A DNA stretch of 64,000 bases from an uncultured Candidatus Binatia bacterium (GCA_964524885.1 CAZGEJ010000008.1:53462-117461); one strand, 5' to 3'; positions 45,547 through 49,938 are shown, counted from the first letter of the stretch. Notes: generated from the letters alone by a model not told the origin. Numbers and translations are program-made.

Positions 45547-46343
45547 TGGCCATTCACCCGACCGCCGTCGTCGACCCGCGTGCCTCGATCGATCCGACCG
45601 TCGACATCGGCCCGTACGTCGTCGTCGACGGACCGGTCGAGATAGGACCGCGCACCAAGGTCGCGGCGCACGCCGTGCTGTGCGGCCCGACCCGCATCGG
45701 TGCCGACAACCAGATCCACATGGGCGCGGTGTTGGGCAATACGCCGCAAGACCGCGGCTTCGACGGCAGCGACAGTTATCTCGTGGTGGGCGATCGCAAT
45801 CTGGTGCGCGAGTACGTCACCATCCACCGCGGCACGCAGCCGGGCAGCACGACGCGCATCGGCGACGACAACCTGTTCATGGCGACGTCGCACATCGCCC
45901 ACAACTGCACCGTCGGCAACGGCGTGACTCTGGCCAACGGCGCTGTCGTCGGCGGTCACGCGACGTTGGAGGATCGTGTCTTCTTGTCGGGCAACTGTGC
46001 CGTGCACCAGCACGTGCGCGTCGGGACCTTCGCTTTCCTGCGTGGTCTGAGCGCGGCCGACAAGGACGTGCCGCCGTTCTGCATCATCGACGAGATCAAC
46101 GTCGTGCGCGCGCTCAACCGCGTCGGGTTGCTGCGCGCGGGCTTCGATCGCCGGCGTGTCAACGCGCTGCGCCGTGCCTTCCGCATCCTGTTCCAGCGCC
46201 GCCGCAACCTGAAGCTCGCCCTGGCCGAAGTCGAGGCGGAGCCGGTGACCGACGACGTGCAACGGCTGATCGACTTCATCCGCGCCAGCCGCCGCGGCGT
46301 CTGCGTCGGCCCGGCCCACCCGGCGCCGGGCGCGGCGGAGTGA
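45546..46343 (+). CDS. lpxA: UDP-N-acetylglucosamine O-acyltransferase LpxA
   Basis: MAIHPTAVVDPRASIDPTVDIGPYVVVDGPVEIG... with left-handed beta-helix hexapeptide repeats and the typical LpxA C-terminal helical domain. The ATG overlaps the yacG stop codon. Confidence 0.9.
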   Translation: MAIHPTAVVDPRASIDPTVDIGPYVVVDGPVEIGPRTKVAAHAVLCGPTRIGADNQIHMGAVLGNTPQDRGFDGSDSYLVVGDRNLVREYVTIHRGTQPGSTTRIGDDNLFMATSHIAHNCTVGNGVTLANGAVVGGHATLEDRVFLSGNCAVHQHVRVGTFAFLRGLSAADKDVPPFCIIDEINVVRALNRVGLLRAGFDRRRVNALRRAFRILFQRRRNLKLALAEVEAEPVTDDVQRLIDFIRASRRGVCVGPAHPAPGAAE

Positions 46344-46358
46344 AAGCGGCGGCGCGCT

Positions 46359-46468
46359 TCAATCCACCGGTTCGAGGCGGGCGAACTTGAGAATGAGTTT
46401 GCGGATGCCGACCGAGCGGAACTGCACGGTCGCCTTACGCTGATCGCCGCTACCCTCGAAGCCGCGCA
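46359..46468 (-). pseudogene. Duplicated 3'-terminal fragment of uvrD (last ~35 codons), non-functional
   Basis: Encodes ...GFEGSGDQRKATVQFRSVGIRKLILKFARLEPVD, identical to the C-terminus of the intact uvrD at 47695. Homology ends at 46468. Confidence 0.7.
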
Positions 46469-46572
46469 GGCACGCCAACACGTCGATCTCGAACACCCGC
46501 CGCAACAACATGCCCACGCCACATGGCGCGGGCATGTTGACGTTGTCCAGCAACACCCATATCTGCGGGCAT

Positions 46573-46839
46573 ATGAAGACGACGATTGAGCTGCCGGACG
46601 CACTCTTCCATCGAGCGAAGGTGTTGGCGGCGCAGCGGAAGACGACGTTGAAGCAATTGGTGGTCGAAGGGTTGGAGCGGGTAACGGCCGGCCCCGCGCC
46701 AACCGCCAGCGCCAAACTGACACGCGAGCAGAAGCGCTATTTCGCCATCGACGCAGATGGCGTTCCCGTCCTCAAAAAGCGCACTGACGGGATCAGCAAC
46801 GACATGGTGAACCGCATGCGCGACGAACTCGGAATCTGA
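46573..46839 (+). CDS. vapB: Type II toxin-antitoxin VapB-family antitoxin
   Basis: MKTTIELPDALFHRAKVLAAQRKTTLKQLVVEGLERV...; the stop overlaps the vapC start (TGATG). Confidence 0.75.
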   Translation: MKTTIELPDALFHRAKVLAAQRKTTLKQLVVEGLERVTAGPAPTASAKLTREQKRYFAIDADGVPVLKKRTDGISNDMVNRMRDELGI

Positions 46840-47237: not shown

Positions 47238-47292
47238 CGGCATACGTACAGATCAACGCGTAACCCGCGCACCAACGAGGGACGGATCACAT

Positions 47293-47679
47293 CGCCGCAA
47301 GACCGCGGCTTCGACGGCCTTGTCGGGCAACTGTGCCGTGCACCAGCACGTGCGCATCGGGACCTTCGCTTTCCTGCGTGGTCTGAGCGCGGCCGACAAG
47401 GACGTGCCGCCGTTCTGCATCATCGACGAGATCAACGTCGTGCGCGCGCTCAACCGCGTCGGGTTGCTGCGCGCGGGCTTCGATCGCCGGCGTGTCAACG
47501 CGCTGCGCCGTGCCTTCCGCATCCTGTTCCAGCGCCGCCGCAACCTGAAGCTCGCCCTGGCCGAAGTCGAGGCGGAGCCGGTGACCGACGACGTGCAACG
47601 GCTGATCGACTTCATCCGCGCCAGCCGCCGCGGCGTCTGCGTCGGCCCGGCCCACCCGGCGCCGGGCGCGGCGGAGTGA
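47293..47679 (+). pseudogene. Duplicated, internally deleted 3' fragment of lpxA
   Basis: 47293-47318 matches lpxA 45733-45758, then jumps to 45983 onward (a 224-bp deletion). It encodes ...SGNCAVHQHVRIGTFAFLRG...GAAE with a V-to-I substitution relative to the intact copy. Confidence 0.75.
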
Positions 47680-47694
47680 AAGCGGCGGCGCGCT

Positions 47695-49938
47695 TCAATC
47701 CACCGGTTCGAGGCGGGCGAACTTGAGAATGAGTTTGCGGATGCCGACCGAGCGGAACTGCACGGTCGCCTTGCGCTGATCGCCGCTGCCCTCGAAGCCG
47801 CGAATGACGCCGACACCGAACTGAGCGTGCTTCACCTGCCGTCCGATCGCCAGTCCGTCCTCGGTATCGTAGACGACCCGCACACCACCTTCCGCCGAGT
47901 ACTCGGTGGTCGCAGCGCCGCGCCGCACGGGTTGGTTGAAGCGCGGGTTCGGCGGCGTTGCCTGCGTCCGCGGCTGCGGTCGGGCCGGCATGCCGCGCGG
48001 CGGGCTGAAGTCCCAGCTCGCTTCGGGCGCGGCGAGATCGATTTCGTCGAGCAGTTCGGGCGGGATCTCGTCGAGGAAGCGACTGCGCTCGTTGGCCTTG
48101 GCCTCACCAAACGTGCGCCGGCGACGCGCATGGGTGAGATAGAGGCGGCGCATGGCGCGCGTCATGCCGACGTAGCAGAGGCGGCGCTCCTCCTCCATGC
48201 CCTGCTCGTCCATCATCGAGCGCGAATGCGGGAACAGACCTTCCTCCATCGCCGTCATGAAGACGACCGGGAACTCCAAGCCCTTGGCGGCGTGCAGCGT
48301 CATCAGCGTGACTCGATCCTCGTCGGGCGCGTAGGAGTCGAGGTCGGTGACCAGCGCGGCGTGTTCGAGATAATCCTGCAGGGCCTGGTCGCTGGCGGAG
48401 TAGTCCTCCATGCCGCGCACCATTTCCTGCAGGTTCTGCATGCGGTCCTGCGCCACCTCGCCCGGATCCTCCTGCAGCATGCGCGAGTAACCCGAGTCGG
48501 CAATGATGCGCGCGGCCAGTTCATGCAGCGGTAGCGTCTCGCGTAGACGGGCGAAGCCGTCCATCAACTCGACGAAGGCGCGCACCTTCTCGGCCCCGGT
48601 CTTGAGCGCGCCGCTGGCGACGGCGGCGCGACACGCGGGCAGGAAGCCGCCGGCCTCCGCCTCGAAGGCGGCGATGCGTTCGACCGTGGTGGCGCCGATG
48701 CCCCGTGGCGGTACGTTGACGATGCGCTTGCCGGAAATGGTGTCGGCCGGATTGTCGAGCAGGCGGAGGTAGGCGAGGACATCCTTGACCTCGGCGCGCG
48801 CGAAGAACTTGACGCCGCCGACCATGGCGTAGGGTACGCGCCGGCGCGCCAGCGCCTCTTCGAACGGACGCGACTGGGCGTTGGCGCGGTAGAAGATGGC
48901 GATGTCGCGCAGCGGCGTGCCGGTGTGGCGCAGCGAGGCGATCTCGTCGAGCACGTAACGCGCTTCCTCCAAGTCGTCCCCGAGGCGCGTCAGTCGGAGC
49001 AGTTCGCCCTTGGGATTTTCGGTCCACAGCGTCTTGCCCTTGCGGCGGCTGTTGCGGGCGACGACGGCACCGGCGCCGGCGAGGATGTTGCCGGTCGAGC
49101 GGTAATTCTGTTCGAGGCGGATGACGACGGCGTCGGGGTAGTCCTTTTCGAAGTCGAGGATGTTGCTGACCTCGGCACCGCGCCAGCGGTAGATGGACTG
49201 GTCGTCATCGCCGACGACGCAGAGGTTGCGGTGGCGCGAGGCGAGCAAGTTGGTCAGGCGATATTGGACTTGGTTGGTGTCTTGGTACTCGTCGACCAGC
49301 ACGTGCAGAAGGCGGTCGCGGTAGCGATCGAGCACGTCGTCGTGCTCCTCGAACAGGCGCACCGTGCTGAGCAGGAGGTCGCCGAAGTCGAAGGCGTTGG
49401 CCCGGGCCAGGCGCTCCTGGTAGGCGGCGTAGACGTCGGCGACGGCCTCGCTGCGCGGGTCGTGCACGGGCACCTGCGACGGCAGCAGGCCGCGGTTTTT
49501 GGCGGAATCGATGGCGCTACCGGCGGTGCGCGGGTTGAGTTCGCGTTCGTCGACCTTGAGATCGCGCAGCACGTCGCGCAGCAGGCGTTCGCTGTCCTGG
49601 TCGTCGTAGATGGCGAAGTTGCGGCCGAAGCCGAGGCGGTCGGCGTGTTGGCGCAGGATCCGCACGGCGGCGGAGTGGAAGGTGGAGACCCACGGCATCT
49701 CGGTCTCGCCGAGCAGCTTGGCGACGCGTTCGCGCAATTCGCCGGCGGCCTTGTTGGTGAAGGTGACGGCGAGGATTCGCCAGGCCGGGACGTCGTGGTT
49801 GCGCATCAGGTGTGCCACCCGATGCGTCAGGGTGCGGGTTTTGCCCGATCCGGCGCCGGCGAGAATGAGCAGCGGACCAGAATCGTGCAGCACGGCACCG
49901 CGCTGCATTTCATTGAGAGAACTGACCAGATCCACCAC
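47695..49938 (-). CDS. uvrD: UvrD/PcrA/Rep-family ATP-dependent DNA helicase
   Basis: Walker A AGAGSGKTRTL and helicase motifs throughout; 747 aa. Confidence 0.9.
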   Translation of the reverse strand: MVDLVSSLNEMQRGAVLHDSGPLLILAGAGSGKTRTLTHRVAHLMRNHDVPAWRILAVTFTNKAAGELRERVAKLLGETEMPWVSTFHSAAVRILRQHADRLGFGRNFAIYDDQDSERLLRDVLRDLKVDERELNPRTAGSAIDSAKNRGLLPSQVPVHDPRSEAVADVYAAYQERLARANAFDFGDLLLSTVRLFEEHDDVLDRYRDRLLHVLVDEYQDTNQVQYRLTNLLASRHRNLCVVGDDDQSIYRWRGAEVSNILDFEKDYPDAVVIRLEQNYRSTGNILAGAGAVVARNSRRKGKTLWTENPKGELLRLTRLGDDLEEARYVLDEIASLRHTGTPLRDIAIFYRANAQSRPFEEALARRRVPYAMVGGVKFFARAEVKDVLAYLRLLDNPADTISGKRIVNVPPRGIGATTVERIAAFEAEAGGFLPACRAAVASGALKTGAEKVRAFVELMDGFARLRETLPLHELAARIIADSGYSRMLQEDPGEVAQDRMQNLQEMVRGMEDYSASDQALQDYLEHAALVTDLDSYAPDEDRVTLMTLHAAKGLEFPVVFMTAMEEGLFPHSRSMMDEQGMEEERRLCYVGMTRAMRRLYLTHARRRRTFGEAKANERSRFLDEIPPELLDEIDLAAPEASWDFSPPRGMPARPQPRTQATPPNPRFNQPVRRGAATTEYSAEGGVRVVYDTEDGLAIGRQVKHAQFGVGVIRGFEGSGDQRKATVQFRSVGIRKLILKFARLEPVD

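Follow-up and report, generated by a model that had tools for sequence, protein, structure and literature searches.

In an uncultured Candidatus Binatia bacterium, a vapBC toxin-antitoxin (TA) module lies at the convergent junction of lpxA and uvrD, between two copies of that junction. We observed this arrangement within a 64,000-nucleotide stretch of DNA (hereafter the window, with positions counted from its first letter). It is a real and recent structural variant, ordinary in kind and a clean example of it. We consider that it probably arose by a recombinase-free "insertion with long target duplication" of vapBC, followed by decay. The features of the locus are presented in Table 1.

Table 1. 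Position and characteristics of the features at the lpxA-uvrD locus of the window.
Feature	Position	Strand	Characteristics
lpxA, intact	45546-46343	+	265 aa; Pfam Hexapep (5e-22), Acetyltransf_11 (2.9e-21); 3' part is copy 1
Copy 1, whole	45742-46466		45742-45767 + 45983-46466; patchy similarity on to 46481
Copy 1, left piece	45742-45767		26 bp; recurs exactly at 47293-47318
Stretch without counterpart in copy 2	45768-45982		215 bp of lpxA; in copy 1 and all relatives
Copy 1, main block	45983-46466		484 bp; lpxA 3' end, 15-bp spacer, last 36 codons of uvrD
Redundant uvrD 3' tail, pseudogene fragment	46359-46466	-	Last 35 codons identical to live uvrD
Foreign insert with vapBC	46467-47292	+	826 bp; not in L169, L171, L172
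Palindrome, putative VapB operator	46506-46539		16-nt arms, 15/16 paired, 2-nt spacer; overlaps -35 hexamer
Putative promoter	46537-46565	+	TTGACG-N17-TATCTG; ends 7 nt before vapB ATG
vapB antitoxin gene, intact	46573-46839	+	88 aa; full-length alignment with 87-88-aa partners of closest VapC homologues
vapC PIN-domain toxin gene, frameshifted	46839-47237	+	PF01850, TIGR00028
Copy 2	47293-47802		47293-47318 fused directly to 47319-47802 (26 + 484 bp); patchy similarity on to 47816
Redundant lpxA fragment, C-terminal domain only	47293-47679	+	Pfam Acetyltransf_11 only
uvrD, intact	47695-49938	-	747 aa; Pfam UvrD-helicase (2e-91), UvrD_C, tudor; 3' end is copy 2

A duplicated lpxA-uvrD junction

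A repeat search detected a long direct repeat around the vapBC insert, with a 300-nt core that was 100% identical at a spacing of 1336, and a second exact piece, a 26-mer shared by 45742-45767 and 47293-47318 (26/26 identical, family D4). By self-BLAST, 45983-46481 and 47319-47816 were 98.6% identical over 499 nt and formed the sole long repeat near the locus. This repeat is real and far exceeds chance. The initial annotation had described a block at 45733-46468 recurring at 47293-47808, with point substitutions and a 224-bp internal deletion, and had proposed aligning the two blocks. The alignment, performed with MAFFT (also used for the relatives) alongside the self-BLAST, confirmed the duplication with its substitutions and its deletion, and shifted the bounds by a few bases: the start moved from 45733 to 45742, the end of copy 1 from 46468 to 46466 and the end of copy 2 from 47808 to 47802, and the deletion measured 215 bp rather than 224. 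In the shared 484 bp, the copies differed at three sites (46020G/47356A, 46437A/47773G and 46452A/47788G). The junction 47318|47319 (45767|45983), read from the sequence, had 0-1 nt of microhomology and was essentially blunt, so that end-joining fits better than microhomology-driven switching. Two further features of the edges are recorded here, for which the insertion model gives no account: four more changes were bunched at the edge of copy 1 (46467, 46469, an additional C at 46471, and 46477), and a 14-nt inverted repeat adjoins two of the breakpoints.

Pfam domains and gene calls agreed that lpxA keeps copy 1 and uvrD keeps copy 2, both genes being intact, as had been annotated. LpxA of the window was 99% identical to that of a relative with an empty site (L169), and its nearest matches came from Candidatus Binatia MAGs. 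The two leftover fragments named in the initial annotation were recovered as well. The translation of the uvrD tail ends RGFEGSGDQRKATVQFRSVGIRKLILKFARLEPVD, the same as the C-terminus of the live UvrD, and gave a weak PcrA_UvrD_tudor match; this pseudogene stops at 46466 and not at 46468. The coordinates of the lpxA fragment pseudogene agreed, and it carries a derived Val to Ile change at 47356. It was annotated as a 113-aa protein (P0241), and the full LpxA is found on the same 162,396-bp NCBI contig.

Short-read contigs from four runs matched the window at 100% and broke where the repeat predicts. The Logan contig L001 corresponded to 46407-47348 at 100%, starting 30 nt before SNP 46437 and ending 30 nt after the junction 47318|47319, and contigs from two further runs (L173 and L175) ended exactly at 46012 (45982+30). 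Since the contigs match at 100% and break at the repeat, the junctions are real; the scope of this conclusion is the junctions and not long-range phasing. The integrated order in every cell is unproven, as the short-read graphs do not phase SNP 46020 with SNP 46437.

The vapBC insert and its frameshifted toxin gene

The insert had a GC content of ~0.61, compared to 0.66-0.74 in the flanks, and vapB and vapC were its only genes, with 29 bp only between the ancestral vapC stop and the insert end. No DNA-level match to the insert was obtained in the rest of the window or among the PLSDB plasmids. Gene calls and matches to TIGR00028 and PF01850 upheld the annotated pair between the two copies, in which the stop of vapB and the start of vapC share TGATG. 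For VapB, we obtained no above-threshold match to curated families and a sub-threshold hint of a ribbon-helix-helix (RHH) antitoxin (PF20605, E=0.025); a small ORF upstream of vapC was kept as its partner in every homologous locus fetched.

VapC scored 89.3 bits with TIGR00028 (cutoff 73.6) and 32.2 bits with PF01850 (cutoff 23.6). The acidic active-site residues D5, E42, D103 and D121, invariant or nearly so in 53 homologues, were all present. We observed a 1-nt deletion in codon 122 (47202-47203), just after Asp121. VapC homologues are 141 aa long and end in RRIDPxLVPGGxxAYVQL, and the same tail was found in the +1 frame of the window at 47204-47263; the frameshift thus swaps out residues 122-141, the conserved C-terminus (last 20 residues). 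In the AlphaFold model of an intact homologue (P0002, pLDDT 95.5), whose fold matches M. tuberculosis VapC structures, strand β5 lies at 136-138 and helical turns at 126-128 and 132-135. The β5 region falls in the frameshifted part, which leaves the five-stranded PIN sheet of the window VapC incomplete. As the frameshift removes the C-terminus including β5, the toxin is probably inactive. The frameshift itself is a fact that the initial annotation had missed.

Upstream of vapB, the palindrome at 46506-46539 may serve as the VapB operator. Another palindrome was found at the same place in L165 and L166, and none was detected upstream of vapB in L163 or L167. The putative promoter did not pass a generic promoter scan; a TTGAC-N17-TATTTA-N7-ATG layout was conserved upstream of vapB in L163, L165 and L167. 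Its end 7 nt from the ATG suggests a leaderless vapB mRNA. Intact vapB and what appears to be a family-conserved promoter are still present after the decay of vapC.

The nearest vapBC cassettes had 68-81% nucleotide identity, with a common part limited to 46552-47256 and unrelated contexts, and members of the family with 50% amino acid identity or less are also carried by conjugative and mobilizable plasmids. Homologous cassettes on longer contigs were without flanking repeats; the repeats are therefore not a regular property of this vapBC family.

Empty sites and origin of the insertion

We compared the locus with three related populations from different SRA runs (L169, L171 and L172; 97.4%, 95.0% and 96.2% nucleotide identity, respectively). 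In all three, lpxA is directly convergent on uvrD, vapBC is absent and the repeated block is single-copy; this comparison of the junction, which had been proposed beforehand, therefore gave neither vapBC nor duplication in 3/3. Each of the three sequences aligned gap-free to both copies and extended beyond the end of the repeat into uvrD. The two copies have five substitutions in common that are absent from the relatives, which places the origin of the duplication in this lineage, and every polarisable difference between the copies was derived in the redundant, non-functional half. Judged from these sequences, the duplication appears young, of the same time as the insertion or just before it. 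Empty sites, polarity and lineage-private substitutions together support the initial annotation in its view of the locus as the scar of a TA-module insertion with duplication.

No integrase or transposase was found in the insert or within ~10 kb of it (ORFs and Pfam), and the ORF scan, which reached ~10 kb upstream and 13 kb downstream, gave no intI-like gene. Housekeeping genes surround the locus (dsbA-like, ccmABCD, yacG, an MBL-fold hydrolase and similar). The window contains no tRNA, and no Rfam family came at or near its gathering score, the one match being to a miRNA model at chance level (27 bits against 79, E=0.065). Terminal inverted repeats were absent at the insert ends (46467... 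and ...47292). A site-specific integrative element was rejected, with no recombinase ORF and a repeat made of 510 bp of host sequence with no short att core. A transposon or insertion sequence was likewise rejected: there were neither terminal inverted repeats nor a transposase, and the duplication is about two orders of magnitude too long.

In the sequence of events that we favor, the 826-bp foreign piece, carrying a self-contained vapBC operon with its promoter, a probable operator, the antitoxin gene and the PIN toxin gene, would have entered at the tail-to-tail lpxA/uvrD junction and been joined there non-homologously, without a dedicated recombinase. One end of the fragment would have been joined within uvrD at 46466|46467, and the other ~725 bp further back, within lpxA, at 47292|47293 (equivalent to 45741|45742). 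Because the two joints are offset by ~725 bp, all the sequence between them would flank the insert on its left and again on its right. This geometry most likely involved two sister chromosomes or a collapsed replication fork. The joints could result from capture of the foreign piece during the end-joining of two breaks at offset positions, or from serial template switching; under template switching, a further switch within the same event would account for both the 26-bp piece and the 215-bp skip. The 215 bp missing from the spare lpxA copy may accordingly have gone in the event itself or in a later deletion. Both stop codons lie within the duplicated block, so that the left copy completes lpxA and the right copy completes uvrD, and the essential or repair functions of both genes survive. 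During the subsequent decay, point changes would have gathered in the spare halves and vapC would have lost one base after Asp121; with its toxicity probably lost, the module would no longer enforce its own retention.

A different route to the same topology is a Campbell-type arrival, in which a circle or concatemer carrying vapBC and the 510-bp lpxA'-'uvrD segment, gap included, integrated by one RecA crossover in the 484-bp homology, the circle having been excised from a clonemate or made by fragment ligation, and the homology being left on both sides. One repeat and the insert together measure 1336 bp, precisely the product expected from excision between the repeats. Repeat-flanked restriction-modification (RM) units amplify, a cycle of release and reinvasion has been proposed for them (PMC2853133), and homologous recombination in the flanking sequences is a proposed means of spread for TA islets (PMC13617665). 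However, this route moves the problem back one step, since the first joining of vapBC to lpxA/uvrD still needs two illegitimate joints, and both copies carry the five private substitutions of the lineage, so the donor could only be a near-clonemate; moreover, the junction of the circle is indistinguishable from the integrated form in short-read data. We therefore regard it as unlikely. The short-read nature of the data also bears on an assembly or population artefact, in which the chromosome would be empty, vapBC and the repeat would exist as a 1336-bp circle, a tandem array or a minority strain, and the assembler would have threaded a de Bruijn cycle into the chromosome path. The k-mer content would be the same for an integrated duplication and for an empty chromosome plus a circle, no difference separates the copies over the 416 bp from SNP 46020 to SNP 46437, a distance that typical short reads do not span, and all the supporting contigs are short-read contigs ending at the repeat. 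Short reads thus do not separate the two arrangements, a point absent from the initial annotation, and its caveat about an assembly artefact stands. Nevertheless, with no replication gene, a 1.3-kb circle can be maintained only through continued release from an integrated copy, and the chromosomal segments in the unit prove a past joint with the chromosome. The same breakpoints at 100% identity in four runs, the presence of both LpxA and the fragment on the deposited 162-kb contig, and the position of the SNPs in the redundant halves, as expected of an integrated and decaying duplication, make such an artefact quite improbable.

Recombination between 484-bp direct repeats leaves no scar, and an empty site alone is thus no proof of insertion: vapBC and the duplication could be ancestral, and L169, L171 and L172 could have lost both in this way. 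Such a history is very hard to reconcile with a divergence of 0.6% between the copies against 3-5% between the lineages. It needs a loss in all three relatives or in their common ancestor, and continual gene conversion would be needed to explain the five private substitutions common to the copies; a recent import is indicated instead by the low GC of the insert and by homologues that sit in unrelated contexts. A dedicated mobile element, acting through a site-specific integrase, a transposase or an integron integrase in trans, has in its favor that integrative elements bring along a copy of the 3' end of their target gene and so restore it, and that TA cassettes are common in integrons (PMC2654758). 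Given the lack of a recombinase gene in the insert or nearby, of a tRNA and of terminal inverted repeats, we give it almost no credence: att cores and the target duplications of transposons are shorter than the 510-725 bp duplicated here by one to two orders of magnitude, the repeats consist entirely of host sequence, single-copy in the relatives, and the homologous cassettes have neither ends nor repeats in common.

Comparison with known insertions and TA loci

The type of scar is already named for RM genes, as "insertion with long target duplication" (Nobusato et al. 2000, Gene 259:99; Furuta, Abe and Kobayashi 2010, PMC2853133; also PMC3874152), a precedent that the initial annotation had missed. 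In these cases, the insertion of RM genes had duplicated up to ~420 bp of the target in direct orientation, often across start or stop codons, and no other mobile element was present (PMC2853133). The cases of Furuta et al. and the present locus have in common a small recombinase-free cassette, long direct repeats of host sequence that occurs once at the empty site of a relative, a deviant insert GC and an addiction-type cargo, and the repeats often span the stop or start of the flanking genes. In terms of the geometry used in that screen, the repeat exceeds 30 bp and is neither att nor tRNA (26 + 484 bp), the insert is shorter than 20 kb with no other mobile-element genes (826 bp), and the repeats align to one single-copy stretch at the empty site (L169, L171 and L172). 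Repeat length is irregular, from tens of bp to ~420 bp in the earlier reports and 510 bp (originally ~725 bp) here. The screen also asked for RM cargo, which is not part of the geometry; the cargo was RM genes (also orphan methylases and mcrA) in Furuta et al. and is a VapBC pair here. The vapBC insertion therefore belongs to this kind of scar but differs in its cargo, and is not one of their RM cases. Here, moreover, the repeat covers two convergent gene ends and one copy has an internal 215-bp gap. These authors suggested DNA breakage made by the cargo as the cause, whereas the VapC toxin is an RNase and cannot cut the target DNA itself.

No report of such a scar for a TA module was found in the open-access literature. 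In Microcystis aeruginosa PCC 7806, a two-gene type II ParE/ParD-like module lies in the chromosome between two identical 152-bp direct repeats, and the available part of that report, as for vapBC here, mentions no adjacent recombinase (PMC7935541). Those repeats are intergenic and contain inverted repeats, and the same part of the report describes neither an empty-site comparison nor a duplication of target genes (PMC7935541).

Regarding the module itself, known VapBC type II systems (TIGR00028/PF01850; M. tuberculosis VapBC, PDB 7vwo and 5x3t) present the same PIN toxin with four acidic residues, overlapping upstream antitoxin and promoter palindrome as here; the window vapC differs from them by lacking the last 20 residues, and its antitoxin by having no above-threshold curated family. 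The locus also resembles the "TA islets" of the ccdO157 type, a lone TA pair between core genes, patchy among close relatives, with the toxin pseudogenised first (PMC2654758; PMC13617665). In contrast, the accounts of TA islets include no long target duplication and explain acquisition by mobile elements with later streamlining, or by homologous recombination in the flanking sequences (PMC2654758; PMC13617665). In chromosomal TA loci, the toxin gene is usually the first to become a pseudogene (PMC13617665).

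Organization of the repeat and of the flanking genes

We analyzed the duplicated block that the initial annotation had described around a vapBC module, and the repeat proved to be real, with agreement between the repeat search, the self-BLAST and the alignment. The repeat search returned a perfect 300-nt core, its two occurrences spaced by 1336 bp, together with a 26-mer that recurs exactly (45742-45767 = 47293-47318). Self-BLAST of the whole window gave 98.6% identity over 499 nt (45983-46481 versus 47319-47816) and no other long repeats near the locus. Alignment of the two copies, as had been proposed, provided the exact anatomy presented in the table below. 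According to the alignment and the raw sequence, 215 bp (45768-45982) are absent from copy 2, the size of this gap having first been put at 224 bp. Three sites distinguish the two 484-bp blocks (46020G/47356A, 46437A/47773G and 46452A/47788G), and four further changes are crowded in 46467-46477 of copy 1 in the alignment. Past 46466/47802, similarity is patchy over about 15 nt, and homology beyond the repeat edges (46474-46572 against uvrD; 47238-47292 against lpxA) scored no better than shuffles.

Features at the lpxA-uvrD locus (window coordinates)
Feature	Position	Strand	Remarks
lpxA	45546-46343		Hexapep and LpxA C-terminal domain
Copy 1	45742-46466		continuous (alignment, raw sequence)
uvrD tail leftover	46359-46466		final 35 codons match those of the intact gene exactly
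Insert	46467-47292		826 bp; GC about 0.61, flanks 0.66-0.74
Palindrome	46506-46539		16-nt arms; overlaps the -35 hexamer
vapB (88-aa ORF)	46573-46839		between the repeat copies
vapC (PIN-domain ORF)	46839-47237		between the repeat copies; shares TGATG with the 88-aa ORF
Copy 2	47293-47802		26-mer 47293-47318 fused directly to 47319-47802 (alignment, raw sequence)
lpxA fragment leftover	47293-47679		C-terminal domain only
uvrD	47695-49938	minus	all domains present, including the C-terminal tudor domain

The lpxA and uvrD genes are convergent, their stop codons lying 15 bp apart, and are neighbored upstream by yacG and ccmABCD and downstream by an MBL-fold hydrolase gene. The two pseudogene leftovers, a uvrD tail and an lpxA fragment, are as first described. 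The 162,396-bp NCBI contig that carries the full LpxA also lists the lpxA fragment, as a protein of 113 aa. Annotators should read this "LpxA-like protein" and the uvrD tail as debris of the duplication, and vapC as a pseudogene; short-read assemblies are expected to break or mis-thread at the locus.

Repetitive sequences were also noted elsewhere in the window. A 1892-aa cysteine-rich protein (8618-14296, minus strand), whose hydrophobic N-terminal stretch suggests secretion, is built of units of about 31 aa (CGD..EC..QDTCDG.G.C), which show in the DNA as tandem repeats with periods of 93 and 186 nt and an identity of about 65-77%. Another repeat protein, 1898 aa long and rich in Gly, Thr, Ser and Asn (54546-60242, plus strand), has a Thr/Pro-rich linker near its C-terminus and no Pfam match at 1e-4. 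At 62757-62977, an apparently non-coding array consists of about five tandem units of 42 nt (TCCGTTGAACCGAAAACCGATTTGACATCGCAAAACCGTTCA) that resemble one another at 76-81%, each with a TTGACA-like hexamer.

Junctions, empty sites and age of the duplication

The junctions between insert and repeats are not assembly artefacts. Logan contigs, which are built with k=31, were recovered from four runs of one project; they match the window at 100% identity, with ends exactly at the graph breaks predicted from the repeat. Contig L001 (ERR3494947, also in a second sample) corresponds to 46407-47348: it starts 30 nt before 46437, the first copy-specific SNP, and ends 30 nt past the junction 47318|47319. 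Contigs L173 (ERR3494954) and L175 (ERR3494971) both end at 46012, that is 30 nt past 45982. These 30-nt offsets are observed values.

Candidate references for the junction were searched in GTDB species representatives and JGI metagenomes, which yielded only distant Candidatus Binatia MAGs (best LpxA 59-60%); these were rejected as references, since yacG-lpxA is kept in them with no uvrD downstream. A search of 5.8 billion proteins combined with exact look-ups found a 99% identical LpxA (P0121) and two cluster mates, on contigs from three different SRA runs: L169 (SRR23086387; 97.4% identity to the window over 4355 nt), L171 (SRR23086398; 95.0%) and L172 (SRR28110208; 96.2%). In all three, lpxA leads directly into the uvrD 3' end, vapBC is absent and the block is single-copy; the gapless alignment crosses the repeat boundary and reaches window positions 48033, 48053 and 47855, respectively. 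The junction comparison suggested in the initial annotation thus identified relatives with neither vapBC nor the duplication.

Using a five-way alignment, we found five substitutions common to both copies and absent from all three relatives. The same alignment identifies 47356A as a derived state in the spare lpxA fragment, and 46437A, together with the four edge changes, as derived states in the spare uvrD tail. Position 46452 is polymorphic among the relatives, so that no polarity can be assigned to it. Because of these five shared private substitutions, and of a divergence of 0.6% between copies versus 3-5% between lineages, the duplication is young and originated inside the lineage of the window; judged from the derived positions, its redundant halves have been decaying. 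By gene order, the lpxA-uvrD adjacency itself is young as well: in a related locus (L170, 1-2264; 82% nucleotide identity) and in the more distant GTDB Binatia loci L002-L012, yacG-lpxA is kept, followed by a different gene, with no uvrD within 6 kb.

Two other explanations of these data were weighed. The absence of vapBC in the relatives could reflect a loss of the unit by recombination between the repeats, which we consider highly improbable, as the unit would have to be lost from each of the three sampled relatives, or from an ancestor common to them, and continuous gene conversion would be needed as well. It is also improbable, to a somewhat lesser degree, that the unit is not integrated in most cells. 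An empty chromosome together with a free 1336-bp circle would give the same k-mers as the integrated form, and the 416 identical bases between the SNPs 46020 and 46437 leave short-read data with no phase across them. However, a circle of this kind lacks a replication function and includes chromosomal segments; therefore, an integrated parent exists or once existed.

The vapBC cassette and its frameshifted toxin gene

The PIN protein passes the NCBIfam model TIGR00028, "TA system VapC family ribonuclease toxin" (89.3 bits, cutoff 73.6), and also matches Pfam PIN; no match was found among PDB sequences. The 88-aa vapB product gave no curated family above threshold, with only an RHH-antitoxin hint (E=0.025); it is full length, and all homologous loci that were retrieved have it as a conserved partner upstream. 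VapC homologues numbered 4294 at E<=1e-5, the closest showing 87%, 85% and 79% identity, then lower. Most of the named homologues belong to Verrucomicrobiota, and the closest homologues lie on metagenome contigs; members at <=50% identity are carried by plasmids of rhizobia and Burkholderia, many of which are conjugative or mobilizable. At the DNA level, the match to the nearest cassettes (68-81% identity) is limited to 46552-47256, and these cassettes lie in unrelated genomic contexts. Long flanking repeats, as a habit of the vapBC family, were not seen around the homologues in loci L165, L167 and L168. The non-coding ends of the insert (46467-46536 and 47257-47292) had no significant match in the window, the fetched loci or the PLSDB plasmids. 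No recombinase gene was found in the insert or nearby, no tRNA, tmRNA or real Rfam family was found, and the insert ends carry no terminal inverted or direct repeats except a host-derived 14-nt inverted repeat.

Upstream of vapB, a layout TTGAC-N17-TATTTA-N7-ATG is common to this vapBC family, as seen in the homologous cassettes L163, L165 and L167 and, at 46537-46575, in the window. The window version is TTGACG-N17-TATCTG (46537-46565), with two changes in the -10 hexamer. A generic sigma-70 and terminator scan gave nothing usable, and the putative promoter was recognized solely through its conservation across cassettes. This layout suggests a promoter with a transcript start at or beside the start codon, and hence a leaderless vapB mRNA, because the -10 hexamer ends 7 nt before the ATG. 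The palindrome at 46506-46539 is a putative VapB operator; L165 and L166 have a different palindrome at the corresponding place, and none was detected in L163 or L167.

The length of VapC homologues is 139-148 aa, most often 141, and their C-terminus reads FLTLDRRIDPxLVPGGxxAYVQL. The window VapC has 132 aa and ends in FLTLDLGSIPRWSLVE. Translation of 47204-47263 in the +1 frame recovers the lost tail, RINPAMVPGGVTAYVQINA, intact: one base is missing in codon 122 (47202-47203). The frameshift is also present in an independent Logan contig. The C-terminal positions are strongly conserved, with G131 and G132 nearly invariant or invariant among 53 sequences. In an AlphaFold model of the intact homologue with 87% identity (pLDDT 95.5), the lost segment comprises a pair of short helical turns and, at residues 136-138, the fifth strand of the sheet; the best structural matches of this model in a fold search are the M. 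tuberculosis VapC proteins 7vwo_A (TM 0.74) and 5x3t_B. The four acidic residues D5, E42, D103 and D121 are retained. Because β5 is lost, the truncated VapC is probably unstable or inactive. In chromosomal TA loci, the toxin usually decays first (PMC13617665).

A second TA pair is located about 6 kb from vapBC (53399-53995, minus strand), and self-BLAST found no flanking repeats around it. The HigB-like toxin (Pfam HigB-like_toxin, 4.9e-16) is the C-terminal part of the ORF 53716-54420. Just downstream, the ORF ending at 53399 begins with MPTNRMRPIHPGEILREDF and is putatively XRE/HigA-like, judged by eye.

Origin of the insertion and relation to known systems

The geometry of the locus requires two non-homologous joints. 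At the first, uvrD position 46466 would be linked to the foreign piece at its left end; at the second, the right end would be linked to lpxA position 45742, some 725 bp farther upstream. One chromosome alone cannot provide these 725 bp twice; therefore, sister chromosomes, a replication fork or a prior circle is needed. We favor, with some confidence, a one-step event in which two sister chromosomes or a replication fork would participate, either by the joining of offset breaks with a foreign fragment captured between them or by serial template switching. In the latter variant, the 26-bp piece and the 215-bp skip would possibly represent one extra switch in the same event; the junction 45767|45983 shows 0-1 nt of microhomology. 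A Campbell route, with a circle of foreign piece and host segment formed first and integrated by a single homologous crossover, would include the prior circle, but the same two illegitimate joints are still needed earlier, and we consider this route rather unlikely.

Beyond the favored one-step event, we observed an inverted repeat of host sequence (13/14 matches, 45753-45766 versus 46453-46466) whose arms adjoin two of the four breakpoints and which, in the present arrangement, brackets the insert (46453-46466 and 47304-47317). The reconstructed 1565-nt empty site holds only three such inverted pairs, a rough post-hoc chance of about 1e-3. Fold-back and template-switch schemes using this repeat were rejected, as none yields the observed direct orientation. 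The inverted repeat and the crowded edge changes of copy 1 are outside what the models tried explain. Overall, the initial interpretation of a TA-module insertion scar with duplication is essentially right.

Insertion with long target duplication was defined by Kobayashi's group from Helicobacter genome comparisons and later found in many bacteria (PMC2853133; PMC3874152). The known cases involve restriction-modification (RM) genes and no other mobile element. Their direct repeats range in length from tens of bp up to about 420 bp, correspond to a sequence present once at the empty site, and in many cases include a start or stop codon; the cargo was itself suspected by the authors of breaking the DNA (PMC2853133; PMC3874152). 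The lpxA-uvrD locus agrees with these cases in all geometric criteria and differs in its cargo alone, VapBC in place of RM. Since the VapC RNase is unable to cut DNA, the locus argues for a host-driven, cargo-independent mechanism; the idea of a cargo nuclease as the cause is weakened, and host break repair or replication restart is indicated instead. The event is clean but ordinary, a new example of a known insertion scar with a common TA family that is already decaying; it shows that such a scar also occurs with a cargo unable to cut DNA. In the open-access literature, we found no report of a TA module with long target duplication and an empty-site comparison. A Microcystis ParDE-like module fenced by 152-bp direct repeats is a partial TA precedent (PMC7935541).

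How "naked" TA pairs enter chromosomes without a mobile element is still debated, and the locus offers a clean natural snapshot, with both junctions base-exact, the empty site in three relatives and orderable decay steps. A recombinase-free spreading cycle for addiction modules generally, and not only for DNA-cutting RM systems, can be imagined, and we hold it to be a long shot. Illegitimate capture would make the long target duplication; host RecA would then excise, via the flanking repeats, a 1.3-kb circle with its own 0.5-kb homology arm; this circle would re-enter any empty-site relative through a single crossover, and post-segregational killing would penalize its loss until the toxin decays. 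If this cycle were true, the 14-nt inverted repeat at two breakpoints would be the sign of a hotspot, prone to form structures, from which such events start.
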